Positions 4,459 to 46,500 of a stretch of 64,000 nt of DNA are shown here, one piece after another. How positions within the stretch are numbered: the stretch's first letter is position 1; every line of letters begins with the position of its first letter. Source of the stretch: Mobula hypostoma (Eukaryota); assembly GCF_963921235.1 (NCBI RefSeq), contig NC_086097.1, positions 76,882,001 to 76,946,000 on the forward strand, given 5' to 3'. The notes under the pieces are model-generated. The model saw only the letters and a program-made list of their open reading frames with translations, was not told the origin of the DNA and did no database searches. Both the position numbers and the translations under genes were made by a program.

Positions 4459-4534
4459 GCAATGGCCGAGCTCATGGCCGAAAACTATTATAATATCTGG
4501 GCCAAGAAAAGGAAAACTGAATTAGAAAGCAAAG
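4459..4534 (+). CDS. RYR3: RYR3 exon (76 nt, phase 0-1): [25 protein letters not shown](G), RyR repeat 4
   Basis: ttacccag| ... |gtaagt; RyR repeat motif AENxHNxWA. Confidence 0.95.
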
Positions 4535-7500
4535 GTAAGTCTGTGAATTTTGCAAGACAAGTATTTGAAGATGCTGGAAATGTGAAGTAACAACATAAAA
4601 TTTTCAAAACAACAGGTCAGACAGCATCTGTGAAGAGAAAAACAGAATTAAAGTTTCAGGAAGATGAGCTTGCAACAATTGTTTTTGAACTGTATTATAC
4701 TGACTGATCATTATATGTATTGATTCTTTTAGTGTAATAAAGGCAGTGGTGGAGGTAGGAATGGTTAGGGTGGGGTATAGAAATTTGCCTTCAGTCATCC
4801 ATCCCCAAAATGTGCAATTATGACTGTAATTAAAACTCTATGTTCAATGTTTTTTTGCCCTTGACTTAAACGAAGCTGGTTTTTGGAAGCAGATTCCACT
4901 GTGCAGGTGTTCCTACTTTGTGTTTCTCATGTTAGTGACGGTGAATGACATTCTACCCAAAACATTTAAGAAATCTAAAGTCTAAATCTCTAGCCATATA
5001 TTTTTGAGTGGTGACCAAACTGCATTTGTTTTTCAATACCTGAAATGTTCAATTGTATGTGTGAGTTTATTACGAAAACACCTTGCATAATTCATGCACA
5101 TCTGCTCTTACCCCATCCTCCCGCCACCCCACTAGGAATAGGGTTCCCCTTGTCTTCACCTCCCACCCCACCAGCCTCTGGGTCCAACATATACTCCATA
5201 ACTTCCGCCACCTCCAACGGGATCCCACCACTAAGCACATCTTTCCTCCCCCCCCCGCCTTTTGCTTTCCACAGGGATCGCTCCCTATGTGACTCCCTTG
5301 TCCATTCGTCCCCCCCCCCCATCCCTCCCCACTGATCTCCCTCCTGGCACTTATTCTTGTAAGCGGAACAAGTGCTACACATGCCCTTACACTTCCTCCC
5401 TCACCACCATTCAGGGCCCCAGACAGTCCTTCCAGGTGAGGCGACACTTCACCTGTGAGTCGGCTGGGGTGATATACTGTGTCCGGTGCTCCCTATGCAG
5501 CCTTCTATATATTGGCGAGACCCGACCCAGACTGGGAGACCGTTTCACTGAATACCTATGCTCTGTCCGCCAGAGAAAGCAGGATCTCCCAGTGGCCACA
5601 CATGTAATTCCACGTCCCATTCCCATTCTGATATGTCTATCCATGGCCTTCTCTACTGTCAAGATGAAGCCACACTGAGGTTGGAGGAACAACACCTTAT
5701 ATTCCGTCTGGGTAGCCTCCAACCTGGTGGCATGAACATTGACTTCTCTAACTTTCGTTAATGCCCCACTTCCCCTTCTTACCCCATCCCTTATTTATAT
5801 ATTTATGATTATTATTATTTTTTTCTCTATCTCTTTTTTCTCCCTCTGACCCTCTCACTATAACACCTTGCCCATCCTCTGGGCTCCCCTCCCCCTTTCC
5901 TTCTCCCTAGGCCTCCCATCCCATGATCCTCTCCCTTCTCCAGCCTCGTATCCCTTTTGCCAATCAACTTTCCAGCTCTTAGCGCCATCCCTCCCCCTCC
6001 TGTCTTCTCCTATCATTTCAGATCTCCCCCTCCCCCTCCCACTTTCAAATCTCTTACTATCTCTTCTTTCAGTTAGTCCTGACGAAGGGTCTCAGCCCGA
6101 AATGTCGACTGTACCTCTTCCTATAGATGCTGCTTGGCCTGCTGCGTTCACCAGCATTTTTTGTGTGTATTGCTTGCATAATCATCGTCATTCTTTGGAC
6201 CAAATATATGTAATAAAAATTTACTTCTGAAATTACATAGCACAGTTCTCAATGTGAAGTTCCTTGCTGCAGCAAGCTGAAATAGATTGGTTATGGGATT
6301 TATTGGGAGTACCAAAAATTACCCAGAAGCACAGAAAATGATCTGAGATATCTCAACTATTTCACAACTCCCAAGTTTCACAACATGTTTGACTGCAGTG
6401 TTGTTGGAGGTATCATCATTCAAGTGTAACTTTTAACCTCTTTGGCAGACACTGAAGATCCCACAACTCCCTTTTGATCATATAATTTATTGCTGTCTGT
6501 GGCTACTCCATTTTCTCTGGCAGAATAGGACTACCCTGCAAAATTCCTCATTGTAAAGCTTGTTACAACATCTTGGAATTGTGGAAGGTGCTATGTAATG
6601 AATATTCTTTGAAAGCCCATTGGATTTGCTTTCTGACTGTAATTTCACTGTAATTTGTCAGGAAGAAGGTTGCATTGCTTGCTTTCTGATAAATAAGTCA
6701 TGATCAGTACACCAAATCAGCATCTAGAAGGGAGATAGAAAATCTGGCTGAGTGATGCCATAACAACAGCCAGCAAGACCAAGGAACTGATTATTGATTT
6801 CAGGAGGAGGAAACCAGAGGTCCATGAGCCAGTCCTCATCAGAGGATCAGAGGTGGAGAGGGTCAGCAACTTTAAATTCCTAAGTGTTATCATTTCGCAG
6901 GACCTATCTTGGGCCCAGCACGTAAGTGCAATTACGAAGAAAGCACAGCAGTGCCGCTTTTTCCTTGGGAGTTTGTGAAGATTCAGAATGACATCTAAAA
7001 CTTTGACAAACTTCTATAGATGTGTGGTGGAGAGTATATTGTCTGGTTGCACCATGGTCTGGTAAGGAAGCACCAATCCCCTTGAATGAAAATCCTACAA
7101 GAAGTATTGGATATGACCCTCCACTCCACGGAGCACATCTACATGAAATGTTGTCACAGAAAAGCAGCATCTGTCATCAAGAACTTCTGCCACCAATCAC
7201 CTCTTCTCACTTCAGCCATCAGGAAGAAGGTACAGGAGCCTCAGCATTCACACCACTAGGTTCAGGAACATTTGCTACCCTCTCAACCATCAGGCTCTTG
7301 AACCAGTGTAGATAACTTCGCTCAACTTCACTCGCCCCATCTCCGAACTATTCCCACAACCGCTGGACTCGCTCTCAACGATTCTTCATCTCATGTTCTC
7401 AATATTTATTGCTTATTATTATTAATTTTTTTCTTTTGTATTTGAACAGTTTGTTGTCTTTTGTACACCAAAGCTGAACGCCCAAGCTGATGCAGTCTCT

Positions 7501-10500: not shown

Positions 10501-13500
10501 ATCTATTGACAGCAATTTATATCCATTCATTATTTCATAAAGTTTTATTTTAATATGAACAAATAGAGACACAAGTGCATCAACCATTGAGTCGCTTTAC
10601 CACATCTTACTGAAGTGTGCTGATCAAAACAGTACGTATTACTCCAAATATAATCATATTCCATGATACAATAGAAAAGGTGAAATGGATTGCTGGAGAA
10701 CTTGTAAAATAAATTAGACTATAAGACCTAGGAGCAGAATTTGGCCATTTGGCCCATTGAATATGCTTCACCATTCCATCATGGTTGATTTATTATCTCT
10801 CTCAATCCCATACTGAATAATTGCTATTATTAAGAAAGTCAAAAGGCATGGGATCCAGGGAAGTTTGGCCAGGTGGATTCAGTACTGGCTTGCCTGCAGA
10901 AAGCAGAGGGTAGTGGTGGAGGGAGTACATTCAGATTGGAGGATTGTGACTAGTGTTGTCCCACAAGGATCGGTTCTGGGACCTCTACTTTTCGTGATTT
11001 TTATTAACAACCTGGATGTGGGGGTAGAAGGGTGGGTTGGCAAGTTTGCAGACGACACAAAGGTTGGTGGTGTTGTGGATAGTGTAGAGGATTGTCGAAG
11101 GTTGCAGAGAGACATTGATAGGATGCAGAAGTGGGCTGAGAAGTGGCAGATGGAGTTCAACCCAGAGAAGTGTGAGGTGGTACACTTTGGAGGACAAACT
11201 CCAAGGCAGAGTACAAAGTAAATGACAGGATACTTAGTCGTGTGGAGGAGCAGAGGGATCTGGGGGTACATGTCCACAGATCCCTGAAAGTTGCCTCACA
11301 GGTAGATAGGGTAGTTAAGAAAACTTATGGGCCATTAGCTTTCATAAGTAGAGGGATAGAGTTTAAAAGTCATGAGGTAATGATGCAGCTCTATAAAACT
11401 CTGGTTAGGCCACACTTGGAGTACTGTGTCCAGTTCTGGTCGCCTCACTATGGGAAGGATGTGGAAGCACTGGAAAGGGTACAGAGGAGATTTACCAGGA
11501 TGCTGCCTGGTTTAGAAAGTATGCATTATGATCAGAGATTAAGGGAGCTGGGCTTTACTCTTTGGAGAGAAGGAGGATGAGAGGAGACATGATAGAGGTA
11601 TACAAGATACCTCCTGGCATAATTTACATATTACTATTTAACTTCCTGGCATAATTTACATATTACTATTTAACTATTTATGATTTTATTACTACTTATT
11701 ATTTATGGTGCAACTGTAATGAAAACCAATTTCCCCCGGGATCAATAAAGTATGACTAAGATATTAAGAGGAATAGATAGAGTGGACAGCCAGCGCCTCT
11801 TCCCCAGGGCACCACTGTTCAATACAAGAGGACATGGCTTTAAGGTAAGGGGTGGGAAGTTCAAGGGGGATATTAGAGGAAGGTTTTTTACTCAGAAAGT
11901 GATTGCTGTGTGGAATGCACTGCCTGAGACAGTGGTGGAGGCAGATATACTAGTGAAATTTAAGAGACAGGTATATGGAGGAATTTAAGGTGGGGGTTTA
12001 TATGGAAGGCAGGGTTTAAGGGCCGGCACAACATTGTGGGCTGAAGGGCCTGTAATGTGCTATACTATTCTATGTTCCATGGTCTATTTTCCTGCCTTCT
12101 CCCCATAACCTTTGAATCCCTGACTAATCACACACAAAATGCTGGAGGAACTCAGCAGGCCAGGCAGCATCTATGGAAAAGAGTAAACAGTTGATGTTTC
12201 AGGCTGAGACTCTTCATCAGGATCCCAAATGAGTTGCATTGAATTGAATTGAATTGACTTTATTTCTTACATCCTTCACATACGTGAGGAGTAAAAATCT
12301 TTACGTTACGTCTCCGTCTAAATGTGCAATGTGCAATTATAGTGATTTATAATAAATAGAACAGTCAATGTAACATAGAATACGCTCAAGTCAGCGTGAG
12401 TTAATCAGTCTGATGGCCTGGTGGAAGAAGCTGTCCCGGAGCCTGTTGGTCCTGGCTTTTGTGCTGCGATACCGTTTCCTGGATGGTAGCAGCTGGAATA
12501 GATTGTGGTTGGGGTGACTCGGGTTCTCAATGATCTTATGGGCCCTTTTTACACATCTGTATTTGCAAATGTCCTGAATCATGGGAAGTTCACAACTACA
12601 GATGTGCTGGGCTGTCTGCACCACTCTCTGCAGAGTCCTGCGATTAAGGGAGATACAGTTCCCAAACCAGGTAGTGATGCAGCCAGTCAGGATGCTCTCA
12701 ATTGTGCCCCTGTAGAAAGTTCTTAGGATTTGGGGGCCCATACCAAACTTCCTCGACTGTCTGAGGTGGAAAAAGCACTGTTGTGCCTTTTTCACCACAC
12801 AGCTGGTGTGTACAGGCCACGTGAGGTCCTCAGTGACGTGGATGCCGAGGAACTTAAAGCTGTTTACCCTCTCAACCCCAGATCCACTGATGTCAATAAG
12901 GGTTAGCCCATCTCCGTTCCTCCTGTAATCCACAACCAGCTCCTTTGTTTTTGTGATATTGAGGGAGAGGTTGTTTTCTTGACACCACTGTGTCAGAGAG
13001 ATGACTTCTTCCCTGTTATTGTTTGAGATAAGGCCAATCAATGTAGTGTCACCAGCAAATTTAATTAGCAGGTTAGAGCTGTGGGGGGGCGACACAGTCA
13101 CGGGCATACATGGAGTAAAGGGGAGGACTTAGTACACAGCCCTGAGGGGCTCCTGTATTGAGAGTCAGAGGAGTGGAGGTGAGGGAGCCCACTTTTAGCA
13201 CCTGCCAGCGATCTGACAGAAAGTCCAGGAAAGGCAGGGTGAAGGCCAAGGTCTCTGAGCTTCCTATCGAGCCTGGATGGAATTATGGTATTGAATGCTG
13301 AACTGTAGTCCAAGAACAGCATTCTCACATAAACATCCTTCTTCTCCAAATGTGTGAGGGTGGTATGTCAAAAAGTGGCTATTGTGTCATCTGTCAATCA
13401 GTTGTGTCAGTAGGTAAATTGTAGGGAGTCCAGTGTGGGTGATAGCAAGCTGCAGATGTAGTCCTTGACCAGCCTCTCAAAACATCTACTTTTTATTGAG

Positions 13501-16500: not shown

Positions 16501-19500
16501 TAAGAAACAGTGCTTGGTAGAAATAATCGTTCATATATTTCTTTCCCAGATTCTGCTTCCTCTGATTGATGAATACTTCAAGAATCACTGTATGTACTTC
16601 CTGTCCTCTCCAACCAAAAGCCTCAGCAGCAGTGGATATGCATCCAATAAAGAAAAGGAAATGTTGGCAAGGTTGGCAAAGCTGTTTTTCTACATCTTGT
16701 CATACTTTACAGAAATTTTACATGACAATTCATTTGAAAGGAATAATTTTCAAGTGCAGAAAATTGTGATTATGTTTAAAATTATGTTCTAATAAGAGGA
16801 AGCCACTGTTTGTCAAATAATTATCAAATCCAAATTTAAAACATTGGAAACAACAGGAATTCTGCAGATGCTGGAAATTCAAGCAACATACATCAAAGTT
16901 GCTGGTGAACGCAGCAGGCCAAGCAGCATCTATAGGAAGAGGCGCAGTCGACGTTTCAGGCCGAGACCCTTCGTCACGAGCTACTGTACTGAGCTACAGT
17001 GAAAAGCTTGTCTTGCACACTGTTCATACGGATCAGATCATTACACAGAGCATTGAGGTAGAACAAGGTAACACAAGAACAATGCAAAATAAAGTGTAAC
17101 AGCGACAAAGAAAGTGCAGTGCAGGTAAACAGTAAGGTGGAAGATCAAAATCAGGTAGACTGGGTGGTGAAGAGTCCAACTTACTCTACTAGGGAACTAG
17201 AGAATCTTAATATAAATGATATTAAGCCTTTTCCCAACTTTATTGCTTTGATCTTGAGTCATGAAAGTAGGAGCTTTTTAGATAGCTTATGTTAGAACCT
17301 TTAATCTGTGAAAATGCTTTTTTTATTGTTCTTGTTCTTAATAGTTCAATCACAGAGGATAATTCTGTAACTATGTATTTCTATCATCTTTTCTTCTTTT
17401 CTGCTTTTTCCTGATCTAGTATTTTCTGCAAACTTGCAGCCCTAGTCAGACATAGGATCTCACTCTTTGGTAAGCAGCCTAAAATCTTGATTATTTGAAT
17501 ATTATCCAATTGCACCAAGGCTGGGATAGCTAAAGATCATCCTGTGAATATAATAATGGGGCTGGGACTTGGGTGAATTGGTTACAATCCATCTTATTTT
17601 TTAATGTTTTTTCTACAACCAAATCCTTTAGATGATCTGAAAATATTTTTCGTAGTCCTCTTTTTTCTGAAGGCTGCCTCTAACAGATCTCCAGGAAAAA
17701 GGGAATAAAAGCTAATGTGTTTCTTCTATATGAAGGAAAACATGTTTGAAGAAAATCTGTGCTTTTGAGTGGCGATCCATCCCAGCATCATTTATACTTT
17801 TGCTGTGTTATTTATTGCATTTTTGCATAAATATGTTGACCAAACTGAACCCAGCTCTGTTCTTTTACAAAATTGATCTGAAGGATAAATTTCTTAAGAT
17901 AGTCAGAGAAAAATGTATTCTCTGATATCCAAAGTAATCTGGTGTCTGTGCCCCTAGGACCAAACTATCTTGAAATTTTGGGCACAACATCTCAATAAGC
18001 ATATAGTTGTGAGAATAATAGTTGTTAATTTCCAAAAATACAAAGATGTTTAAAACTAATTAGGCCTCAGAAATGTATTGCTGCAGTCAGAAAGAGGGCC
18101 ACCTAATTATTCTTGACTAACAACACCACAATGTTCTGTTTGTGCATAAATATAGTATTAAATATGCTGCATAGCTTGTAGACTATGCCATCACCATCCA
18201 AAAGCTGTTTGCTTGGGGAAGCAAGAGTGAACTTTGGAGATGTACAAATAAGGTACACAGCCATCTTTGCCAAGCAGCACACCTCGCCTGCTGAAGAGTT
18301 ATATGAAAGCCAGCAGATTTCTTTCTTATGCCCACCCAGTAACAGAGCAGCTCTTCGACTCCTGCTATTCACTAAGGGTTTTTTCAAGATGTAGCATTAA
18401 CCAGCTGATCCCACCTTAGGATTACAGCTTCAAATTCTACACACTTGCCTATTTGTAGATAAAAGTAACCTAATATGTAAAAATCCTGATTGGGGTATTG
18501 ACATTTAAAATATTAACAGTATTTGTGTAAATAAATAAGATAATATTCAGTTGTTTGATTACTTCTATAGGCACTGATTCTGGAACAATGGTGAACTGTT
18601 TACATATCTTGGCACGTACTCTAGACCCCAGGTATCTGAAGCAATTTTTTCATATTTCATTAAATTTTTCACCTACTTCGAGATTTTTAAGCAGAACTTG
18701 TCTCCACTCCCCCCCCCCCCACTGGAAATGTGGAAATGTGTAGATTGTGCATTTTATCCTTTGTGTATTCCAGGACTGTTATGAAGTCTGGCTTAGAGTT
18801 GGTAAAAGCTGGTCTGCGTACATTCTTTGAAAATGCAGCTGAAGATCTGGAAAAGACACTGGAAAATCTGAAACTTGGAAAATTCACACATTCACGATCT
18901 CAACTGAAGGGAGTTACACAGAATATCAATTACACAACTGTAGTTCTGCTACCTGTGCTAACATCATTCTTTGGCCATATCAGTCAACATCAGTTTGGAA
19001 CTGACTTGATCTGTGAGTAGCCCGGTTCCTCAACATAGTGCAAAGATATAATCGTCACTTGTAGACTTCAATTTGACTTTTATTTGCAACCATTTGTTTG
19101 TTTGCATTGACTGAAAACAGAAAAATGAGTCAAGTTTATTGTCATATGCATATGTATACTGTACATAAATGCAGATGCAATAAAAAAAACTTCTTTGCAG
19201 CAGCAACCCTGGAACTTAGCATCATATAAGAAGCATTTACAAGAAAAGTATAAATTAAAAATGAATTAGACACAATTTTTACAAGAGAAAAAGTTAGTAC
19301 AAAAAATGTGGATTTTAGGGCAACGTGATCAGAGTGATCATAGCGTTGCTAAACTGTAGAGGTGATTAGGTTTTTCCGATTGGATCAAGAACCAAACGAT
19401 CAAAGAGGAGGAACTGTTCCTGAACCTGGCGGTGTGGGACTTCAGGCTTTTGCGCCTACTGCCCAATGTTAGCTGCGAAAAGATGGGATGGCTCGAATGG

Positions 19501-31500: not shown

Positions 31501-34500
31501 GATTTCTGAACAGATATGGCCTGGGAGATAGGATTCCTTAATAATACATGCTGCCTTTTTGAGGCATCACCTTTTGAAGATGTCCTCGATGCCGGGGTGG
31601 CTAGTGCCTATGATGGAGCTGGCTGAGTTTGCAACTTTCTGCAGCTATTTTTCATTCTATGCAGTAGCCCCTCCATATCAGACTGTGATGTAACCAGTTA
31701 GAATGCCCTCCACAGTACATCTGTAGAAATTTGCGAGAGTGATTGGTGACATACTAAATCTCCTCAAACACCTAATGAAATATAGAGACTATTGTGCCTT
31801 CTTTGGCATCAATATGTTGGGCCAGGATAGATCCTCAGTGATGTTGACACCCAGAAGCTTGAATCTGCTCACCATTTCCACTGCTGATCCCTGAATAAGG
31901 ATTGGTATCTGTTCCCTCGACTTCTCATTCCTGAAGTTCACCATCAATTCCTTGGGCTTACTGATGTTGAGTGCAATACCATTCAGCCAGCTGATTGATC
32001 TCACTCCTGTATGCCTTCTCCTCACCATCTGAAATTCTGCCTACAATTAGCAGCTTTGGGCCTGTACTCACTGGAATTTAGAAGAATGCGGGCGCATCTC
32101 ATTGAAACTTACCGAATGTTGAAAGGACTAGATAGGGTGGTTGTGGAGAGGATGTTTCCTACGGTGGGGTATCCAGAACTAGAGGGCACAGCTTCAAAAT
32201 TGAGGGGCGACCTTTTAGAACAGAGGGAAGGAGGAATTCTTTTAGCCAGAGAGTAGTAAATCTGTGGATGCTTTGTCACTGACTGCGGTGGAGGCCAAGT
32301 CCAATGGTATATTTAAGGTGGAAGTTGATCATTTCCTGATCAGTCAGGGCATCAAAGGATATGGTGGGAAGGCAGGTGTATGGGGTTGAATGGGATCTGA
32401 GATCAGCCATGATGGAACAGCACAGCAGACTTGATGGGCTGAAAGGCCAAATTCTGCTCCTTTGCCTTATGGTTTTATACAATTGCAACATAATGTTTCA
32501 TTTCCTATACTCAATGCTCTGACTGATAAAGACCAGCATGCTATATTCTTTTTTCACCATTCTGTCTATCTGAGATGCCACTTTAAAAAAAATGCACCTA
32601 TACTCTGAAGTTCCTCAGTTCCATTACATTCCCTTAGTATCCTACCAGTCGTAGTACAAGTTCTATATTAGTTTGACTTTCCAAAATGTATCACCCCACA
32701 CTTAACTGTATTGAAATGCATTTGCCTTTCTTCAGCCCACTTCCTAACCAATCATGATCCCCTTGTAAACTGTGATAATCTTCTTCACTATCAACACACC
32801 TGCTAATTTTGTGTCACCCTCAAACTTATTGATCAAGTTTTGTTCATTAACATCCAAATAAAATATATATAATATACACACACATAAAGCAAGTAACAAA
32901 GGTCTCAACACCGACTTCTGTGGCACAACACTAGATACCAGTCTGCGTTCCAAGAAATAACTTTCAATCATCACTCTCCGCTTCCTACCTCCTATTTTGA
33001 ATCCACCTAACTAGATCTCTCTGGATTCCGTGGGACTTAACCCTCCTGATCTGCCTACATATGGGACATCGTCAAAGGCCTTCCTAAATCTAAATACAAA
33101 ATATCCACTTCCCTATCTTCATCTATACTTGAGGTTACCTTTTTCAATAAAAAATCTCAAAATCTCATCAAGCATGATTTTCCACACACAAAACCGTGAC
33201 GACTGGTCCTAATCAGACTCTGTCTACCCAAGTGCTGGTAGATCCTGTTCTCCAGAATTTCTTCCAGAAACTTCCCCACTATCGATATCAGGCTGGCTGG
33301 CATGTAGTTCCCTCGTTTATCCTTGCCAAACTTCTTAAAACATTAACTATCTTCCAGTCTTCAGGAACTTCATCAGTGGTTAAGGATGAAGTAAATATCT
33401 CTGCAATTTATTCTCCAGCCTCCAACAAAGTCTGAAGATGCACTGTCAGGCCCTGGGGAATTATTCACTTTAAATCTATCAAGCTTGGAGTAATGTGCTC
33501 GCTCTTCCTGACGTAAGAGTAACTTAACTGACCACCTTTCTCTTTTCATCTTTGTTTAGAGCTTGGCTTGCTGAATACACCCCAGTAAGCCAAGACTACG
33601 TCAAACCATTGGGTGCAACCATTGCAGCCCATCCTATCTGCCACATACTGACTCTATCAAAGAAATTCCCTTAGTTTCATTCATTTTACCACTGCACAGA
33701 CTACATTATTTTTCTCTTCCTCAGGTTTGATGTAGGTTTCTTCACTGAAAAATGAACTGTCTCACTGTTCTGATTCTACCTGCTTAGTTTTCTCCCCCCA
33801 CTTTTTTGTGCTTGTTTCATGCTGGCTTAGTTTTTCTTATCCTAAATGCTTAAATCTAGCCTGCTGTGAATGTAACTGTAACAACTCGTTATGTAGACTT
33901 AGAAGCTTAATGTGCCGGTAATTGTATTATTAAAACATTTTGACTCATCCTAATAGAGACACTGTCTTTGTTCTACATACCCCTTCCCACTGAAAACAAA
34001 CTTGCATGTTCTCTTTTCCAGTCCTGATGAAGGGTCACAGACCCGAAACGTGGGCTGTTTCTCTTTCCACAAATGCAGAAAGGTGATGAGCATTTCCAGC
34101 ATTTCTATTTTTATCTCTTCTTTCTTTTGATCCTTCCTTTTGTGATTCTTTTCTCTATGTCAATACACATCAGAGCTATATAGTCATAGCCATAGTCATA
34201 CTTTATTAATCCTGGGGAAAATTGGTTTTTGTTACAGTTGCACCATAAATAATAGTAATAAAACCATAAATAGTTAAATAGTAATATGTAAATTGTGCCA
34301 GTAAATTATGAAATAAGTCCAGGACCAGCCTATTGGCTCAGGGTGTCTGACCCTCCAAGGGGAGGAATTGTAAAGTTTGATGGCCACAGGCAGGAATGAC
34401 TTCCTAGGACACTCTGTGTTACATCCTGGTGGAATGAGTCTCTGGCTGAATGTACTCCTGTGCCCACTCAGTACATTATGTACTGGATGGGAGACATTGT

Positions 34501-37500
34501 CCAAGATGGCATGCAACTTAGACAGCATCCTCTTTTCAGACACCACCGTGAGAGAGTCCAGTTTCATCCCCACAACATCACTGGCCTTACGAATGAGTTT
34601 GTTGATTCTGTTGGTGTCTGCTACCCTCAGCCTGCTGCCCCAGCACACAACAGCAAACATGATAACACTGGCCACCACCGGCTCGTAGAACATCCTCAGC
34701 ATCGTCCGGCAGATGTTAAAGGACCTCAGTCTCCTCAGGAAATAGAGACGGCTCTGACCCTTCTTGTAGACAGCCTCAGTGTACTTTGACCAGTCCAGTT
34801 TATTGTCAATTCGTATCCCCAGGTATTTGTAATCCTCCACCATGTCCACACTGACCCCCTGGGTGGAAACAGGGGTCACCGGTACCTTAGCTCTCCTCAG
34901 GTCTACCACCAGCTCCTTAGTCTTTTTCACATTAAGTTGCAGATAATTCTGCTCACACCATGTGACAAAGTTTCCTATCGTAGCCCTGTACTCAGCCTCA
35001 TCTCCCCTGCTGATGCATCCAACTATGGCAGAGTCATCTGAAAACTTCTGAAGATGACAAGACTCTGTGCAGTAGTTGAAGTCTGAGGTGTAAATGGTGA
35101 AGAGAAAGGGAGACAAGACAGTCCCCTGTGGAGCTCATTATCAACAATTAAGATTGAACCAGATAAATGGTTTGGTGATGCTAGTTCAGAGAAGGGAGTT
35201 AGTCAATATGTCAAGTGAAGGCCTTACTCCTCTTTAAGGGATCTTTTACATATACTAGAATAAGCAGAAGATTTTTAAATAATTTTATTTTACATCTCCT
35301 GATAGATGGAAACTCTAGCAATGTTCCAGTAAATCTTTCATACACAGTTTACTGCAATCTTAAGTCATGATAGAGATAGTGTGCCTAAGTAAATAAAACT
35401 GAGGGCACAGTCAGGGTGGAGGAGCAACACCTCATGTTCTGTCTAGATAGCCTTCAACCTGATGGTATGAACAATGATTTCTCCAACTTTCTCCCTCCCC
35501 CTTCCCTCTTCATTTCCCCACTCTGGTCTCTTACTTCTTCTCCTCACCTGCCTATCACCTCCCCCGGTGCCCCTCCTCCTTCCCTTTCTCCCATGATCCA
35601 CTCTCCTCTCCTATCAGATTCCCTCTTCTCCAGCCCTTTACCTTTTCCTAGTATCACCTCCCAAGTTCTTACTTCTGAACCCCTTTTCCACCCGCCTGGC
35701 TTTACCTATCACCTTCTTGCTTGTCCTCCTTCCCGTCTCCCCAATCATTTTATTCTGGCATCTTCCCCCTTCTTTTCCAGTCCAGATGCAGGGTCCCGGC
35801 CTGAAATGTTGACTGTTTATTCATTTCTGTAGATGCTGCTTGGCCTGCTGGGATCTTTCAGCATTTTGTGTGTGTTGCTCTGGATTTCCAGCATCAGCAG
35901 GACCTTGTGATATATGCTATAGGAATATCAGCTAACATAACAGTGTTATAAAATCATATTTATAAGCTATGGCTAATGCTTGCTGTCTGCTGCAGACTCT
36001 GAGTTTGCCTCGGGTGCTGTACATGGATCAGCAAGTAAAAAAGAAAGCTTCGGGGAAAATGGAACAATATCCTGTAATTCTTCTTTATTGTTAAATGGGC
36101 TGCCATCTGCAACCATTCATTTTTCAACACGTTTGCAGAGGATAAAAAGTGTTCTGAAGTGGGTTGCTCTTCCTCATTTCATGGACTTCCACTGAAAGCT
36201 TCATCAATGATTCTGAAAAAATACTGTTTCAAACACTATTTAATGATACCCTTTACCTTCATTTCCTTAACAATCAGAGTTTGAAGCTTGAAATAACTGT
36301 TAATATAACAGAACCATTAAAGTCCAAGCAGGTGTAGATGACAGAAAATGTTAAGAGAGCTAAATCGCTCCGTTCATTAGGAAATTAGGTCGATCATGAA
36401 TAGACAGGAACAGCTGTGCAAGAAAAATCTGTGGGATTAACCATAATGCATTCTTCCTCTGCAAATTGTGTTTCCATACGCATTCACAAAACCAAGAGCA
36501 ATTTGAAAGCTGTTAATGAAAGTCTTTGCTGTAAGGTCTGTTTTGCTGCGAATACAATCACTTAGGCTGGAGAGCAGAAACAGCAGAGTATCCTATACTG
36601 AAAGCAGCTATTCTCAAATTAAAAAGCGTGTAATATGCAAAGGTGTATAAAGGCCACACTATGACATATTGACTCTTTAAAGGTATGTACACAGTCAACA
36701 CTGGTTTCCCTTTCCAAATGAGAGTTGTACAACCATGTCAACAACTGCCTAAATATATTAATATATGCCATCAAATAAATATTTTACATATGAAATTATG
36801 CAATTAGCTAATTATAATTAGTTTCTTAATTTTCCGTCTATAAACCCTATATCACAATTTACTTCAGCTATTGTTACATACAGTATACATCTGGTCCCTT
36901 CTCCTCATCTCCAGTTGTACATAAATATTCCCAAGAGTTTAAAGATACTCCATGTGGTACACAGTGTACAAAAACTTCAACATAATCTGATAACCAAATG
37001 AAATTCTGCAATCTATTTAGCACACTACTAAATACAATGAATTCAATGGCAACAATCTTTTCTTTGGTTGCCCTGTAAGCTTATCAGTGTGTACAGGTTG
37101 ACCTGCAATAAGTATTGTCACATCTTTTGTCTTGACAATGCTATCTGCAGCACAGATAACTGTGGACTGGTCATAGTTCCGTTGTGAGGCAGACACCACA
37201 TCTATATCACTTTAAAATATGACCATTATGAAATGCCACATGGAATTTAAAATACTCTGTAAAATACCCCATGTAACTATGTCACACTAAGTCCTTTCTC
37301 TGTAACATGGGAAAAATACTATTGACTATGACTGTTCCCACCTCCTTGCATGCATTGCATTTTCCATTTCTAATGAGATTGGGGTCTGCATTCTCTATTA
37401 GCTACTCAACTTCTTCAAGAATGTGAATGGACATTGTAAGGCTGAGAGTCATTGCCAAGAGACAAGTGGAGATTGGTTAGGGTCAACAACATCACTGAGA

Positions 37501-40500
37501 TCTCAGGAAAGGCTGAAGAACAGAGAGGCATGGTGACGCACCAGAAGATGAAAGATTGTTGCTTACAGAAGACTAGAGACATGTAACAAATGACACCAAG
37601 CCATTGGCACTCACGTATCTGCCAATTTTCAATCTACATGACTTGCCATTAGTGTTGAAATTGTGCCCCACTATTATCATCATTGTGGGCCTGTGGCCTG
37701 CTTGCACCCCAGAATCATGCCCTGAGCAAAACTGTCTCTCATTTTACCACACAATCTCACTTCCGGTTGCTGTCCTGTTTGCTCCCTCGAGCAGTTGGTC
37801 CACTGCAAATAAACAACTTCCAACATTTTTGAATTATAATAGCCCTTCAGGAGTTTTATAATGTTCTCATTAGTGACTTGTCTGTCATCCATGGTACCTA
37901 TAAACTCACTGATGTCACATGCCTCTAGCCCTCCTGCCCAGTATCATTCCTTGCCTCACATCTATCCTGCTGTGCTCTTCTCTGGTCTTTCCTGGAACCT
38001 CAGCAATGCTTGATCACCTCAGAAACAACACAGTCACACAGTCCATATAAAGAGTGAATGGCAGAGTCCACTCATGCTCATTGAGCTTTCTGACAAATCT
38101 CACTCTCACGTCCTCTTTCTGACAAATTCACAGTGCCTCTTCTTACTCGGAGAACTTGGTTTTCCTGTTTCTGCAACCACAACCTCCATCTCCTGTTAGT
38201 CTCACAGGCAGCAATGCCCCAACCTTGTCAATTCAGTCAATGTTTTCCCTTGGTCAAGTACTGTCAATCATAGCAGACAGAGCTAACAATATGACATTTC
38301 AGAATCAGAATCAGGTTTATTATCACCATCATGTGTCGGGAAATTTGTTAACTTAGCAGCAGCAGTTCAATGCAATACATAATATAGAAGAAGAAAACAA
38401 TAATAATAAATAAGTAAATCAATTACAGTATACGTATATTGAATAGATTAAAGATTGTGCAAAAACGGAAATAATATATATTTAAAAAGTGAGGTAGTGT
38501 TCACAGTTTCGAAGTCCATTTAGGAATCGGACGACAGAGAGGAAGAAGCTGTTCCTGAATCGCTGAGTGTGTGCCTTCAGGCTTCTGTACCTCCTACCTG
38601 ATGGTAACGGTGAGAGAAGGGCATGCCCTGGGTGCTGGAGGTCCTCAATAATTGATGCTGCCTTTCTGCTCCTTGAAGATACTTTGTAGGCTAGTACCCA
38701 AGATGGAGCCTAGTAAATTTACAACCCTCTGCAGCTTCTTTCGGTCCTGTGCAGTCAGCAACCCATACCAGACAGTGATGCAGCCTGTCAGAATGCTCTC
38801 CACGGTACATCTATAGAAATTTCTCAGTGTATTTGTTGACATACCAAATTAAACTCCGAATGAAGTATAGTTGCTGTCTTGCCTTCTTTATACCTGCATT
38901 GATATGTTGGGACCAGGTTAGGTCCTCAGCGATCTTGACACCCAGGGACTTGAAACTGCTCATTCTTTCCACTTCTGATCCCTCTATGAGGATTGGTATG
39001 TGTTCCTTCGTCTTACCCTTCCTGAAGTCCACAACCAGCTCTTTCTCCTTACTGACATTGAGGGCCAGATTGTTGCTGCAGCACCACTCCACTAATTGGC
39101 ATATCTCAGTCCTGTACACCCTCTCATCTCCATCTGAGATTCTATCAACAATGGTTGTATCATCAGCAAATTTATAGATGGTGTTTGAGCTATGCCTAGC
39201 CACACAGTCATGGGTATAGAGAGAGTAGAGTAGTGGGCTAAGCACACACCCCTGAGGTGCGCCTCTTTGAATGCTGTGCAGAAGTATATTGAGGCAGTAA
39301 GAGACATCGTTAACCAGTGTCAAAATTCAGTATTAGTTCTCACTACACATCAGATCTAATTTCTCAATCAAGAGAAAATCTGCAGATGCCAGAGATCCAA
39401 ACAACACACACAAAATGCTGGAGGAACTCAGCACGCCAGGCAGCATCCATGGAAAGAGTACAGTCGACATTTTTGGCCTGAGACCCTTCCACAGGACTGA
39501 AGAAAAAAAGATGAGGAGTAGATTTAAAAAGTGGGGGTAGGGGAAGTAGAAACACAAGGTGATAGATGAAACCAGGAGTGGGAGAGATGTAGTAAAGAGC
39601 TGGGAAGTTGATTGGTGAAAGAAATACAGGGATGGAGAAGGGGGAATCTAATAAGAGAGGACAGAAGGCCATGGAAGAAAGAAAAAGGGGGAGGAGCACC
39701 AAAGGGAGGTGATGGGTAGGCAAAGAGATGAGGTGAGAGAGGGAAAAGGGGATGGGGAATGGTGAAGTGGGGGAGGAATTCCCAGAAGTTCGAGAAATCC
39801 ATGTTCATGGCATCAGGTTGGAGGCTACCCAAGTGGAATGTAAGGTGTTGTTCCTTCAACCTGAGTGTGGCCTCATCACGACAGTGAAGGAGGGCATGGA
39901 TAGACATACTGGGATGAGATTGGGATGTGGAACTAAAATGGGTGGCCACTGGAAGATCCTGATTTTTCAGGCAGACGGAAAGTAGATGCTCAGCGAAGTG
40001 GTCTCCTAATCTACATTGAGTCTCCCTGATATACAGCAGGCCACACACCAAGAGCACCAGACGCAGTATATGACCCCAAAAGATGTACAGGTGAAGTGTT
40101 GTCTCACCTGGAAGGACTGTTTGGGGCCCTGAATGGTAGTGAGGGAGGAGGTGTAGGGGCAGGTGTTTCACATTTACTTTTCTTTAAACATGGGATCATT
40201 AAACTTCACTCACACTAAGTTTGTGTCTATGGACCTATGTCATTAGGCATTCTACTATTTTAACACCCATCACATTTTACTATAAGTGAGTCAATGGATT
40301 CTGCTTTAACAGAGTAATGGAATTCCTCATGTGTTGAGAATTGCAATTGTAACTTTTTTATTATTTCTCTTTAGAATTAGCAGGAGTTACTAACCAGTGG
40401 TGGAGAATTACATTTTCATAACACTTCATATTTTTGCTGACCTCTGTGAAATTTAGTGTAATTGAGAAAAGGAACTTGTGGGATCTTATCTCTAATGATC

Positions 40501-43500
40501 TCCTGGATAACTTTTTTTTATTGCTTGTATAATTCTTAAACATGTTTGAGTTACGATACCACATGCTCCTTCAATCAATGTATTGTACATAAAATATGTA
40601 GCATGTTCTCAGCTATGGCAAACATAGCTTCTCGAATATTGGTACAGTTCAATATTTTACAGGAGATAATTGCCCTTTATTTGACGAGAAAATGGCTTTA
40701 TACTTTTCCTTCTGCCTTTGTTTAGACAACGACCTGTCCTTGGAGAAAGTCTTGCCACACTTGCAGCTGCCATGCCAGTCGCTTTTCTTGAGCCTTCTAT
40801 CAACATACACAATACGCATTCAGTTTTCAACACAAAATCACCCCGAGAACGTATCAGTAAGTGACGTGGTCTTTCTATGGGGATAAAACACTTGCTTTCA
40901 GGGTGAACTAACACTATGCAGCATCTAATCTGGCAAATAGTTGTGTTTATTTAGTGGTGAATTCATAACATTAAGTACAAAACTGAATGGTTTGTCACAA
41001 TTACAACATTTGATATTTATTATGTGGAATAATAGAGGCCCGAATCTGTCTATTAATGGAATGGGATCCAGAGAACTGGCCTTGCTGAATTGAAGCTCCT
41101 GGACTCCAATAGCTAGCCTAGGCGGTTACAATACCTCTATTGGTAGCCCAACAAAGCTCTGTCATTGAAACATCCCTGAAGGTTTTGACAGCTAGAAAAC
41201 CTTTGCCCCACCCCCCAACTCCAGCTTCATCAGCTCTCGAAGCTACAGAAGTCATATCGTAGTTCAGCCAATCTAAAGCACTTCAAAATGATTCAAAATA
41301 AAATGAAGCATTTTTATGTTAAAACAGCTAAAATACTGACAATCAAAAATATGAAACAGAAATCATTTTGAATAAAGCCTTCCAGTATTATTGTCAATCA
41401 CAAGCTTTATCACGATCATATCCAAGAGGCCATTTTTCAGGAAATGCAGCAGTATTTGGAATGCTGAATCTGTCAATAATTTAGCAATAATTTACCAGTA
41501 AAAACATATTAGATCTAAGATGGCAAATTTCTAACAAAATTTGCTTCGTTTCACAAGCTTTCTCTGGCTGCGCAAAATGTTCAGATTGTTGCTGGCTGTT
41601 CTCTTCTGTCTTTTGCATTTATGGGAGTCCAAAGTACCAAGCAGATCTTTTTTTGCATTCACCCTTAATTACACTGCAGTCCCAGTTTGCTTTCAAGAAG
41701 GTCCTTTGAAGGCTGATATCCCTTCCTGGGGACAGTAGCTCCATAGGCTCACTGTGCCAAGTTACTGAGATCCTTGTAGAGTTTTTCTTGAGTCAGCCAA
41801 TTTGAAATGTCTCTGACTGTAATATAATGTCTCCATCATTCTCATCTGTACCTTTAACTAAAAACACCTGCTTCTTCGAATTGTCCTTTAAATTTGGTCC
41901 TTTGACGTTGGTCATCAGAACTATATTTGTAACTTAGTATTCAAATTTCCTTCCATTTGGTGCTGCTCCTGTATACAGCTTGTTATGTTATTGTCCTTTT
42001 GTAAATATAAGTTGTTCTGTTTATAATGTTGCCATTGAAAGTGGATCTTGTATGTCCCTAGAGCTTCTGGCCTAGATTTTCCAGTTGGTTGGCAAGCAAA
42101 AGCACTTGTAAATTGTGTCACTGATAGATCCCCAAAATCTAATCTGGTTTCTGACCAAGTGAGGTTCCACCTACTGGGCATCTTTAGCACGTTCAAGGAG
42201 TGCAAGAAATGCTGAGGCTCGTCCACCCATCTAATTGACGAATCCTCATTAAGAAATGCTGAATCTAAATAATGAAGTTGAAATTCTATCTAAATGATGA
42301 ACAGTAAAATAAAGATGTTGAAGTCAAGATGGTTTAAGAGAAAGAATATACTGAAAAGGTTAGAAGAGTTTGTTTTTAAATCTCCAACATTAATATCTGA
42401 GAGAATGAGATGCTTCACCTGTAAAATTAATTGTTCAGAGCTGGATAAGTTAATCAGTAAACACGAGGAAATCTGCAGATCCTGGAAATTCAAGCAACAC
42501 ACACAAATGCTAGTGGAATGCAGCAGGCCAGGCAGCATCTATAGGGAGAAGTACAGTCGACGTTTCGGGCCGAGACCCTTCGTCAGGACTAACTGAAAGA
42601 AGAGATAGTAAAAGATTTGAAAGTGGGAGGAGGAGATCCGAAATGATAGGTGAAGACAGGAAAGGGAGGGATAGAGCTAAGAGCTGGAAAGTTGATTGGA
42701 AAGAGGGATACAGAGCTGGAGGAGGGGGAGGATCATGGTACGGGAGGCCTCGGGAGAAAGAAAGGGGGAGGGGAGCCCAGAGGAAGATGGAGAGTAGACA
42801 AGGAGTGATTGGGAGAGGGACAGAGAGAGAAAAAAAGGGGGGAATAATAAATAAGGGATGAGGTAAGAAGGGGAGGAGGGACATTAACAAAAGTTAGAGA
42901 AATCGATGTTCATGCCATCAGGTTGGAGGCTACCCAGACAGAATATAAGGTGTTGTTTCTCCAACCTGAGTGTGGCTTTTTTTCTCTCTCTGCCCCTCTC
43001 ACAATAACTCCTTGCCAGCTCTCCATGTTCCTCTGGGCTCCCCTCCACCTTTCTTTTGCCCTGGGTCTCCCGTACCATGATTCCCTGCCCCCCCCCAACT
43101 CTGTATCCCTTTTGCCAATCAGCCTTCCAGCTTTTAGCTTCATCTCTCCCCTCCTGTCTTCTCCTATCATTTCGGATCTCCCACTTCCCCTCCCACTTTC
43201 AAATCTCTTACTATCTCTTCTTTCAGTTAGTCATGACGAAGGGTCTTGGCCTGAAACTTCGACTGTACTTCTTTCTATAGATGCTGCTTGGCCTGCTGCG
43301 TTCCACCAGCATTTTGTGTGTGTTACTTGAAGTTAATTAGTAGCTAGTTACTTTGATTTTATTTTGAAATCACAATTATGCTGAGCTTAATGTACTGCCA
43401 TCTTTTGTTGCGAGCTAATGGATAGGCCGAATGCAGATCATCTCAGTCCATATTCCATCAGTCAGAAGTGCAGCAATGCACTCTGTCAGAGGAGGGAGCT

Positions 43501-46500
43501 AACTCTGACAACAGCCCAATGTATATGTGTACAGTATAACTATGTACAATGGCCTAACCCAGTAATGAATGAATCTAAAAATCTAAATGTAAACCTTGAG
43601 AAAAGCAAGTACGAAGTAAAGGTTTTCTTCATCTTTTATTTTAAATATTTTTACATTGTTCCAATACAAATTCTAATTGTCACATGAAGTGTCATCCTCT
43701 TGCTACCCACAGCCCTCTCTTTAAGACCCATAAATGTGTTGACAATGTAATGGTCAAAGACCCAGAATAATGATCCTTTGCCTCTTTCTCTTAATTTTTG
43801 TATTTGGGAAAATGGTCTTTACAATGATAACAAAGTTGCCGCTGCAGTGGTCAGTATCATAGTCATAGTCATAGTGATAATTTATTGATCCCGAGGGAAA
43901 TTGGTTTTCATTGCAGTTGCACCAACCAAGAATAGAGTATAAATAAAGCAATATAAAACCATAAATAATTAAATAGTAATATGTAAATGCCAGGAAATAA
44001 GTCCAGGACCAGCCTATTGGCTCAGGGTGTCTGACCCTACAAGGGAGGAGTTGTAAAGTTTGATGGCCACAGGCAGGAATGACTTCCTATGATGCTCTGT
44101 GTTGCATATTGGTGGAATGATTCTCTGGCTGAATGTACTCCTGCGCCCACCCAGTACATTATGTAGTGGGTGGGAGACATTGTCCAAGATGGCATGCAAC
44201 CTGGACAGCATCCTCTTTTCAGACACCACAGTCAGAGAGTCCAGTTCCATCCCCACAACATCACTGGCCTTACGAATGAGTTTGTTGATTCTGTTGGTGT
44301 CTGCTACCCTCAGCCTGCTGCCCCAGCACACAACAGCAAACATGATAGCACTGGCCACCACAGACTCGTAGAGCATCCTCAGCATTGTCCGGCAGATGTT
44401 AAAGGACCTCAAGTCTCCTCAGGAAATAGAGACGGCTCTGACCCTTCTTGTAGACAGCCTCAGTGTTCTTTGACCAGTCCAGTTTATTGTCAATTCGTAT
44501 CCCCAGGTATTTGTAATCCTCCACCATGTCCATACCAATGTGAAAAAGCACAAGTACCCAAAGTTAGAAATTACTAGACTATTAGATTAACAGCCTTTTT
44601 TTTACATAAACTTGCATTTTTGAATGATGCAACAAAAATTGCTCCCAAATTACTGATCAAGGAAATTGAGCTGGATTACAGATGGTCCTGGGACTTGCAA
44701 ACACCATCCTCTTGCTCTTTGTTTGTCACCAGCACAGCCTTGAACTTTAAATAGCTCATGGTCAATCAGGTACAGAAAATTAAACTAAGAAAAATACATG
44801 AAACAAAGAAATAGTATTGAAGTCTCGGTGTCAGCTACTGAGCTCCACTCTGTCGACCCAATGAACTAGGGTATGATTTAGCAAGATTTACAGGAGCTTT
44901 ATGTTAATTATGTCTAGTCATTCAGTAGGGAAAACATAAGTAGTTGAATCAATAAACAATGGGCTGGATCTTATTTGACCCAACCCCTGCTTTGCATTTG
45001 CTCTCACATGGTGCCCTTAGCTTTTCACTTCCAAACCAAAGTTTCAGCACAAACTCAGATTACAAAGGGCATGACAAAGCACAGCAACCACATCTCAAGA
45101 CAGCAAAGTATTTCATTAGAAGTAGTGGGTTTCTCTAGTAAAATGCAGTGAGCAAAGGGAGGTCACATCATAAAAATTTGAAGTATTAAACCCATCCCAG
45201 TTGGTCACAGCAACAGTATCTGCTGCTGTGGTTGACTCAGAAATTTTTCAGTCATCTCCCTTCGAACAAAGACAATGAATGACATGACATAGAAAACAAT
45301 GGTTTATGTCAAGTTTAGAGATTTTATCATATTATCATAATTCTTTTTGAAAGGATTTTTTACTATGAGAATGTTAACTAATCGTGCCTTAATTCACATG
45401 CCCAAATCTCCTGGTTGATTCAACCATGGACTGATGTTAGATGTCCCTTCTGATGCTCAAAGCATTCCATTTGCTTGGTCTATCTGAAGGTTACCTGTTG
45501 CAGTGCTCATCCTTGCCCAAAACTGACTCATGCGTTTCTCTCTTAGGCTGTTGCAGCTTACATGTTCTAGAACACAATTCATCCAAATGTTTGCCATCCA
45601 AACCCATTTGCCTTCACTGAGTTCTTGGCTCCAAGCCTCCATGATGAAGGGTCTCTGGCCGAAACATCGACTGTTTATTCCCCTCCGCAGACGCTACCTG
45701 ACTTAGAGTTCCTCCAGATTTTTTTGTGTTTGCTTATGATTTCCATCTTCTGCAGAATCTCTTGTGTTTCTGATATTGACACTTAATTTGCTTTGTTAGT
45801 TCTAGGTTTGCCAGATACTGTGGAGGAAGTGTGCCCAGAGGTACCTCAACTAGATGCACTAATAAAAGAGATCAGTGAAACAGCTGAGTCTGGAGCTCGA
45901 TACACAGAAATGCCTCACATCATTGAGGTGGTTTTGCCCATGCTGTGTAATTATCTGTCATATTGGTGGGAACGGGGCCCTGAGAACAACCCCAGTGGGG
46001 ACTGCTGTACTGTCGTCACCTCGGAGCATCTTAGTGCAATCTTGGGCAACATCTTGAAGATCTTGAACAATAACCTGGGCATTGATGATGCTTCGTGGAT
46101 GAAGAGGCTAGCAGGTAAAAATGCAATATATTTTAATGGCCCCTAAAGGGACCTGTGTTTTGTTGATAAAATCCTGCTTCATACTTGCAGAAGCAAAAGA
46201 CCTGTTTTGCCTTCATGAACTTATTAAATGTACGGCATGAAATTTGATTAATATTACATAAAACCCCAGTCAATTTTATGGTGAAAGTAATTATATGCCA
46301 TTTGTAAACTGAAGCACAGCAAAGTGTTGTTCGGAATGGACTAGAAGGGTCAAGACGGCCTTTTTCTGTGCTGTAATTGTTACATGGTAAAGTGCAATGA
46401 CTTTTGAATACTTAGCACACTCTAAATGCCTTTGCAGTCACTTAATTGTGTGCATTTAATGGAAATGGCCATACATTCCATTGAGCTGGTTTCACATTTA

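Follow-up and report, generated by a model that had tools for sequence, protein, structure and literature searches.

Minimal hammerhead ribozyme motifs in a very high-copy Penelope-like retrotransposon of Mobula hypostoma and their copies within an RYR3-like gene

Background

The motif that recurs through the DNA analysed here is a small hammerhead-ribozyme sequence already known from Penelope-like elements (PLEs), and its class is thus a known one. A minimal hammerhead of Schistosoma is inactive as a monomer and only weakly active as a dimer or trimer (PMC4209133). In PAc (Poseidon, Anolis carolinensis; Frangieh et al. 2024, PMC11167929) cleavage occurs only with the PLE protein, and the ribozyme is dispensable for insertion in vitro. 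Naiad PLEs are without canonical hammerheads (PMC8557442). A first-pass annotation of this DNA had taken it as established that the hammerheads of PLE pLTRs cleave as dimers; their carriage by pLTRs agrees with the literature, but dimer cleavage overstates what PMC4209133 and PMC11167929 report.

Like the PLE minimal type I hammerheads described before, the ray motif has no helix III of its own, a palindromic 15.2-16.2, a helix I of 4-5 bp and an extra nucleotide between 9 and 10.1, and it occurs once per pLTR, mostly as scattered singles. It differs from those accounts in its stem II (3-4 bp, against 7-8 in Schistosoma), in the G10.1-U11.1 pair of its youngest family and in an A6C lineage. 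Our estimate of ~85,000 intact motifs compares with published counts of ~4,000 for the coelacanth and ~9,000 for Xenopus, which were obtained by a different method with the authors' own descriptor. PAc likewise has a pLTR hammerhead near the ORF start and two 3' ends 30-40 nt apart (the tail), but in the ray the whole motif precedes the open frame, and the protein carries a CX2-5CxxC linker. With the Neptune clade (Craig et al. 2021, PMC8557442) it shares a single ORF with RT followed by a C-terminal GIY-YIG, the CX2-5CxxC linker, CCHH-type residues in the EN, partial tandems, inverted 5' copies and a tail, whereas ray insertions have 10-14-bp target-site duplications (TSDs) in ordinary sequence and not microsatellite targets. 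Many ray copies are non-coding, hammerhead-bearing and PLE-derived, as are animal non-LTR retrozymes (10.64898/2026.07.22.740005); unlike these, they are dispersed stumps or fold-backs with the ends of an autonomous element, not tandem arrays. The ray is absent from the published host lists in the parts and supplements covered, and our literature search found no chondrichthyan PLE hammerhead, although file 1 of PMC4209133 and the supplement of the retrozyme preprint, which lay outside that search, may list a shark or ray.

Results and discussion

Motif-bearing insertions in the window

The window is a 64,000-nt stretch of contig NC_086097.1. Each of the 13 sites first listed in it holds, on the strand given, either the motif or a homologue of it that has decayed, and all 13 are homologous pLTR ends of a PLE that its motifs mark as Neptune-type.

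5091-6179, plus: 5'-truncated PLE copy with pLTR and a frameshifted EN; motif 6075 (C15.2U)
12128-12222, minus: older stump; decayed motif 12189 (G16.2A, G1.1A, G10.2A)
16848-16979, minus: young stump, 99% identity, whose start coincides with the front of the core; motif 16946 (C3G)
20072-21289, plus: older 5'-truncated PLE copy, 71% identity; decayed motif 21162 (G12A and further changes)
22068-22685, no strand: two pLTR stumps in a head-to-head fold-back, with motifs 22128 minus (G12A) and 22555 plus (3 nt missing at the cleavage triplet); 14-bp TSD with one mismatch
22860-25284, plus: young 5'-truncated PLE copy with RT, CX4CX2C linker, GIY-YIG and a 3' UTR/pLTR with hammerhead
25183-25218, plus: intact minimal type I hammerhead (core, an additional A after A9, ACGU, stem I; stem II of 4 bp including G10.1-U11.1), sense to the host gene; predicted cut 25214/25215
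34016-34106, plus: older stump; motif 34020 (G at position 17; core boxes, stem II and ACGU kept)
35775-35900, plus: older pLTR end; motif 35779 (U4A, A9C)
39365-40166, minus: older 5'-truncated PLE copy, 71% identity; decayed motif 39462 (A6U, G12A)
42459-43334, no strand: head-to-head fold-back, motifs 42555 minus and 43229 plus (C3A, G16.2U); TSD of ~13 bp with one mismatch
42555-42590, minus: intact minimal hammerhead motif with G10.1-C11.1, antisense to the host gene
45641-45733, plus: older stump; motif 45641 (C3A, stem I absent), with an RYR3 exon ~65 nt downstream
50100-50195, minus: additional decayed stump, absent from the first list
51627-51824, no strand: additional head-to-head fold-back stump pair, absent from the first list

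Core, ACGU and both stems are kept only at 25183(+) and 42555(-); the other 11 sites are broken. Intact motifs, with core boxes CUGANGA and GAAA and a UH triplet, thus make up 2/13 of the listed window copies and 38/350 of those sampled across the genome, bearing out the expectation that most copies are decaying. A near-verbatim exact pattern matches the window only at 42555-42590(-), with no match in 100 shuffles. A profile HMM of the pLTR end gives 18 matches, the 13 listed and five more at 4610(-), 29984(-), 50100(-), 51660(-) and 51740(+), and none in a shuffled 960-kb genome sample. The high density proposed earlier, one motif per ~5 kb, is upheld at a measured 1 per 3.6 kb (18/64 kb), and the genome sample has 1 per 4.4 kb (351/1.56 Mb). 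An Rfam search of the window, with matches allowed to E 5, returned no hammerhead family; its MIR8670 match at 51669-51818 (43.9 bits, gathering cut-off 150) was rejected as the fold-back stump pair. No tandem arrays of short non-coding hammerhead units occur in the window; the family is represented there by single stumps, by fold-backs and by truncated copies that carry ORF sequence.

The full-length element and its abundance

Over 2,426 nt, the young copy at 22860-25284 (open frame 22814-24889, 691 codons) shares 99.4% identity with a full-length unit, L057, whose open frame has 1,043 codons and whose pLTRs each carry one hammerhead. Complete elements measure 3.5 kb and have a single RT + GIY-YIG frame, one hammerhead 90 nt before the frame and a second ~295 nt after it. 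The two motifs are one unit, ~3,515 nt, apart. Eighteen near-full-length loci place the motif in the pLTRs of an RT + GIY-YIG element, as first proposed, and sense to the ORF: the 3' hammerhead is present in all 18, both hammerheads (at -90 and ~+3,425, with frames of 1,038-1,043 codons) in 8, and clear 10-14-bp TSDs in 9. The 5' pLTR varies in length up to 1.5 kb, and the family includes partial tandem pLTRs, inverted 5' copies and a 30-40-bp tail. Pfam finds both RT and GIY-YIG, each below its gathering cut-off. At a threshold of E 1e-30 the element has 1,175 homologues; among those with names, the nearest come from Mobula (92-95%), Hypanus (79-81%) and two sharks (68-72%). The translated frame has C-X4-C-X2-C ahead of the GIY-YIG motif, corresponding to Neptune's CX2-5CxxC linker (PMC8557442). 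Judged by these motifs, and not by a tree, the element belongs to the Neptune-type EN+ PLEs.

Across 156 evenly spaced 10-kb stretches (1.56 Mb), the family covers 84,934 of 1,560,000 bases (5.4%), and the 351 pLTR ends extrapolate to 782,000 genome-wide (bootstrap 684,000-885,000), confirming the very high copy number suspected earlier. Intact motifs would number ~85,000 (58,000-114,000). One 33-nt variant has 6,892 exact genome copies, and a pattern fixing 23 nt of another has 45,804 matches. In the cluster that is both youngest and largest (48 copies at 0.8% divergence) the core is complete, and the family has likely been active in recent time. Although 45 of 70 young copies have no ORF, these share the element's two 3' ends, which argues for a stump-bearing retrotransposon family and not an independently spreading ribozyme family. 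The "ribozyme family" of the first-pass annotation is right as to copy number, but the unit that spreads is a retrotransposon with motif-bearing stumps.

Conservation and decay of the hammerhead

The minimal type I anatomy, with core, extra A, palindromic ACGU and stems, stood up to closer analysis. The extra A between A9 and G10.1 is found in 216/228 copies; the closing pair 10.1-11.1 is G-C in 87/228 and G-U in 96/228, the latter fixed in part of the young cluster (30/48). A core-only search of 80 related PLE loci gave 18 matches, against 0.71 in shuffles, and both stems are paired in 13 of the 18, against none in shuffles. In nine aligned motifs the extra nucleotide is invariant, 92.9% of cells pair, 9/11 pairs change on both sides and the palindromic 15.2-16.2 shows one ACGU-to-AGCU swap; since a pairing descriptor chose these motifs, the alignment leans towards structure, and the core-only search is the non-circular test. 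Across PLEs of ~45-55% RT identity the core is invariant while stems I and II covary, whereas within the M. hypostoma genome stem changes are one-sided wobbles only. Among five subfamily consensuses (of eight clusters with at least 4 copies, three with inverted-arm upstream sequence being left out), identity is 87-95% for the 38-nt motif, 54-76% for the upstream flank and 64-89% for the downstream tail; as the tail is conserved too, part of this conservation may reflect promoter or RT signals.

The fold would be kept by selection in source elements, with inserted copies decaying mostly at CpG. An excess of TG over CA is confined to the two CpGs that tolerate C-to-U, N7 (98:11, p 1e-18) and 11.1 (107:57, p 1e-4), with no such excess at three others (63:52, 54:69, 47:60). 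A G8A sub-lineage was dismissed as CpG decay. The full core is not always kept: A9C occurs in 12/228 copies and A6C in 28/228, the latter an older lineage that spread widely with its own RT/EN (52-76% identity to the young protein).

Insertion ends and the question of cleavage

We consider it probable (about 0.85) that the motif is a minimal type I hammerhead sequence in the pLTR of a very high-copy Neptune-type PLE, and that the intronic copies are truncated insertions of it, which likely derive from RNA that had not been cut and are likely inert within the RYR3 transcript. Among the 70 young copies, 22 5' ends per 1,761 nt at risk fall in -33..0, against 12 per 8,542 further upstream (p 9e-10), and they peak at -33..-26, which is the ribozyme's front edge and not the cut site. 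In the first 100 of 2,923 matches to a truncation pattern, scored by eye, there was no sharp pile-up at the cut site G1.1, with 11-17 ends there against 16, 12 and 10 at three neighbouring positions; many of these ends show microhomology to an inverted arm. Two preferred sites ~36 nt apart account for 20/54 and 22/54 of the 3' ends. These ends suggest that transcription may begin within the pLTR, close to the ribozyme's front edge. RT would prime internally, as it does in Anolis PAc, at two sites that lie ~67 and ~103 nt beyond the cut site, and it would often run off or switch template inside the ribozyme, leaving many 100-140-bp stumps.

Splicing was also considered, with an acceptor at the pyrimidine tract and CAG with which stem I opens and with the D. 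virilis PLE intron (PMC4209133) as a precedent, but it found no support: no GT..AG joint marking an intron in the pLTR/5' UTR was found among the 15 listed in each of two contig sets (which hold 115 and 61 more), and 11 front-edge copies have no common upstream exon.

Having no stem III of its own, the motif would be cut after C17 only in a pair of copies joined through ACGU; such cleavage would probably be slow and probably helped by the element's protein. ViennaRNA prefers an inactive rod, with core box GACG paired to CGUC, and gives the active dimer an energy 17-19 kcal/mol higher than that of the best dimer, a score that leaves out the non-canonical contacts of the core.

An alternative is rolling-circle copying, put forward earlier (PMC4209133), whereby the two hammerheads of a tandem transcript release a unit-length RNA that is circularised and copied more than once by RT. 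The one-unit spacing of the motifs and the variable 5' pLTRs are what such copying would give, and a religated circle would also keep the cut site intact in copies. The clustering of 5' ends at the front edge, with no distinct pile-up at the cut site in the 100 copies scored by eye, speaks against it, as does the indifference of PAc insertion in vitro to ribozyme mutants (PMC11167929), and we regard it as unlikely. Slightly less credible is that the motif no longer cuts in the ray lineage and is kept as a structural or promoter/RT-recognition element: the favoured rod, the Naiad PLEs and the spread of the A6C lineage with a change associated with low activity (kobs under 0.1 per min, PMC3088659) are consistent with this, but the youngest, largest cluster has a full core, and that core is invariant across distant PLEs while the stems covary.

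Motif copies in the RYR3-like gene

As first proposed, the 13 sites first listed lie inside an RYR3-like gene on the plus strand, between exons that match RYR3/RyR:

about 4450-4539: RyR-like exon, RYR2 score slightly above RYR3
about 45799-46113, plus: host exon, best match RYR3 residues 3088-3194 (184 bits against 150 for RYR2)
about 47187-47432, plus: host exon, best match RYR3 residues 3194-3275 (127 bits against 106 for RYR2)

That intronic copies cut or regulate RYR3 pre-mRNA is very improbable. The intact 25183(+) is sense to the gene, and 34020(+), with its core boxes, stem II and ACGU, could in principle serve as its partner, but 8.8 kb separate them, and antisense pLTR arms at 22068-22286, 16875-16986 and 42516-42635, 86-93% complementary to the 25183 region, would compete. 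Motif density here is near the genome average and 11/13 copies are broken; cleavage of host-gene RNA by the two intact copies is predicted to be unlikely, and nothing points to a role in RYR3. A chance likeness to a hammerhead inside a repeat, which the empty Rfam search might suggest, is refuted by the covariation in related elements and by 0 descriptor matches in 5 shuffles of 1.56 Mb, and is practically negligible.

Conclusions

The ray element adds scale to a known class, with ~780,000 pLTR ends and ~85,000 intact motifs in one vertebrate genome, and, as a young, intact Neptune-type element, it is usable for testing hammerhead function in PLEs. We tentatively propose, at somewhat less than even odds, that its insertion ends record a PLE RNA which begins at the hammerhead's front edge and is copied without being cut, and that a lineage crippled by A6C still reached tens of thousands of copies. 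If so, the PLE hammerhead would be a conditional switch or a 5'-end structure and not the enzyme that processes RNA to unit length. This young family, with its many open frames, would then offer a ready system in which to study the function of PLE hammerheads.

The carrier element and its copies

The minimal type I hammerhead motif at 25183(+) lies downstream of an open frame of 691 codons (22814-24889), the product of which has weak Pfam RT and GIY-YIG matches, a DKG motif, YIDD and a C-X4-C-X2-C linker ahead of the endonuclease. Its closest named homologues come from rays and sharks, and the linker points, at the level of sequence, to a possible place in the Neptune clade. When the first 150 residues were compared with the genome, the best 150 of 16,693 candidates were 97-100% identical, without internal stops, and the window copy at 22860-25284 matches the full-length unit at 99.4% identity. 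The motif sits about 295 nt past the stop in 18/18 loci chosen for long frames, and eight of the 18 carry it a second time at -90 relative to a frame 1,038-1,043 codons long, which agrees with the first-pass annotation in assigning it to the pLTR of a Penelope-like element (PLE). The same loci contain partial tandems, which vary in length, along with inverted 5' copies; clear target duplications of 10-14 bp are present in 9/18. Two 3'-end sites about 36 nt apart account for 20 and 22 of 54 copies; tandems, inverted 5' copies, target duplications and 3' ends match features listed for EN+ PLEs in the accessible parts of PMC8557442 and PMC11167929. Short pLTR-end insertions (stumps) also occur, and three stretches of the window are fold-backs:

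22068-22685, head-to-head fold-back
42459-43334, head-to-head fold-back
51627-51824, head-to-head fold-back

Two ray gene models in public databases that bear host-gene names (P0012, P0029) contain long stretches of this PLE ORF, which suggests exonisation or annotation error.

The motif or a decayed homologue was found at all 13 sites originally proposed, on the strand claimed. Under a strict motif pattern the window has a single match, 42555-42590(-), and 100 shuffles have none. A profile HMM built from the motif and the flank that follows it, and refined by iteration over a genome sample, scores 18 window matches; shuffled DNA yields zero. When core, ACGU and both stems (II and I) are required, the intact sites are 25183(+) and 42555(-) alone, the same pair that an independent structure descriptor picks; with 2/13 window sites and 38/350 genome-sample copies intact, most copies are indeed decaying.

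The genome sample (156 evenly spaced 10-kb stretches of large contigs) yielded 351 HMM matches spread over 130 stretches, or 225 per Mb, and window density is therefore near the genome average. The suspected very high copy number is borne out by a genome-wide estimate of about 782,000 ends in 3.48 Gb (bootstrap 684,000-885,000) and about 85,000 intact motifs (58,000-114,000; 38/350 scored). Exact counts, 6,892 genome copies of one 33-nt variant and 45,804 genome matches to a pattern with 23 nt of the young variant fixed, are of the same order. By another method, about 4,000 minimal hammerheads in coelacanth and about 9,000 in Xenopus are given in the available text of PMC4209133.

Conservation of the fold

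Across 80 loci of related PLEs from metagenomes, core letters alone matched 18 times, versus 0.71 in shuffles, and both stems were paired in 13/18 of these matches (shuffles, 0). Covariation and core conservation were checked on nine aligned motifs, two from the window and seven from related PLEs chosen by a pairing descriptor, a choice that biases the pairing count: the core does not vary, 92.9% of cells pair, 9/11 pairs show changes on both sides, and one element replaces ACGU with AGCU. The same minimal hammerhead with other stems occurs in metagenome PLEs at L246:1028, L246:4094, L265:3582, L281:4197, L257:338, L284:49 and L296:126; L246 has one in each pLTR, with A at position 17.

Across five genome subfamily consensuses, clustered on flanks alone, the motif is 87-95% identical and the upstream sequence 54-76%. 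Decay at CpGs is skewed solely at sites that tolerate C-to-U (TG:CA 98:11 at N7 and 107:57 at 11.1, versus 63:52, 54:69 and 47:60 at the remaining three), a pattern that fits source elements altered at tolerated sites only and inserted copies decaying neutrally.

Ends of copies

Forty-five of 70 young (low-divergence) copies lack the ORF because they start no more than 330 nt from the cut site. The 5' ends of the young copies, BLAST-derived and possibly off by a few bases, cluster within the motif: the stretch -33..0 holds 22 for 1,761 nt at risk, 11 of them at -33..-26, versus 12 for 8,542 nt in -330..-34 (p 9e-10). These 11 front-edge copies are flanked by inverted arms, by duplications or by unrelated DNA, and the 3' UTR of older subfamilies is absent from their flanks; no sharp 5'-end peak at the cut site was seen among the first 100 of 2,923 truncated copies, scored by eye. 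We infer that the clustered ends mark the RNA's 5' end, which, combined with internal priming as established for PAc, the Poseidon PLE of Anolis carolinensis (PMC11167929, in part), would give many stumps with motif and tail alone.

The motif's complementary segments (stem I arms, GACG/CGUC, ACGU palindrome) provide microhomology at many inversion/deletion junctions (G000:C1, genome). Stem I opens on a splice-acceptor-like sequence, a pyrimidine tract closed by CAG (window 25160-25184), with an equivalent in all five subfamilies, and the young family has an additional AG 4 nt beyond; no spliced joint at the stem-I CAG appears among the joints listed in the contig data.

Is the ribozyme strictly needed?

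Several results speak against a strict need. The core substitution A6C occurs in 28/228 copies versus an A-to-C rate of 1.2% at the remaining A positions (p 6e-20), and its carriers group as a flank cluster (12/15 members) that is older than the young cluster (divergence 8.6% vs 0.8%), with RT/EN fragments ahead of the motif 52-76% identical to the young protein. This lineage, exemplified by L091, L142, L150, L156 and L168, would number about 60,000 copies across the genome if the sample is representative. A6C breaks a predicted inhibitory helix between core box and cleavage site; in a natural phage hammerhead it is reported, in the part of PMC3088659 available, with a kobs under 0.1 per min. 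A9C is also above background (12/228, p 2e-5), mostly in old copies; its carriers include window site 35779 and L048, L114 and L200. ViennaRNA predicts an inactive rod for the monomer and rates the active dimer as 17-19 kcal/mol less favourable than the best one. In published work, the Schistosoma minimal hammerhead cuts weakly and as a multimer only (PMC4209133), and the Anolis PLE hammerhead requires the PLE protein for cutting and is dispensable for in vitro insertion (PMC11167929).

The host gene

about 4450-4539 (+), host exon, RyR-like
about 45799-46113 (+), host exon, best match RYR3
about 47187-47432 (+), host exon, best match RYR3

The first-pass annotation had put the motif in RYR3 introns, and these exons place the sites inside a + strand RYR3-like gene. 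Of the two intact motifs, 25183(+) alone reads in the RYR3 sense. The closest copy that might partner it, 34020, is 8.8 kb off, and antisense arms in the same region are 86-93% complementary to the 25183 sequence. Cleavage of RYR3 pre-mRNA by the motif is unlikely. A weak Rfam Histone3 match at 46113-46158(-) (23.5 bits, gathering 34) is probably chance. Fragments of RT-like frames from other retroelements (421-1011, 10817-11577, 11749-11985, 38762-39263, 34311-34851, 43994-44535, 59133-59672), some pairs of which are 95-98% identical, are presumably LINE-like, judging by resemblance.

Standing among known systems

Our literature search found no paper on this PLE hammerhead family in sharks or rays, and the retrozyme preprint 10.64898/2026.07.22.740005 samples one chondrichthyan in its accessible portion. 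The PLE minimal hammerhead is a known kind, to which Mobula hypostoma adds a family.
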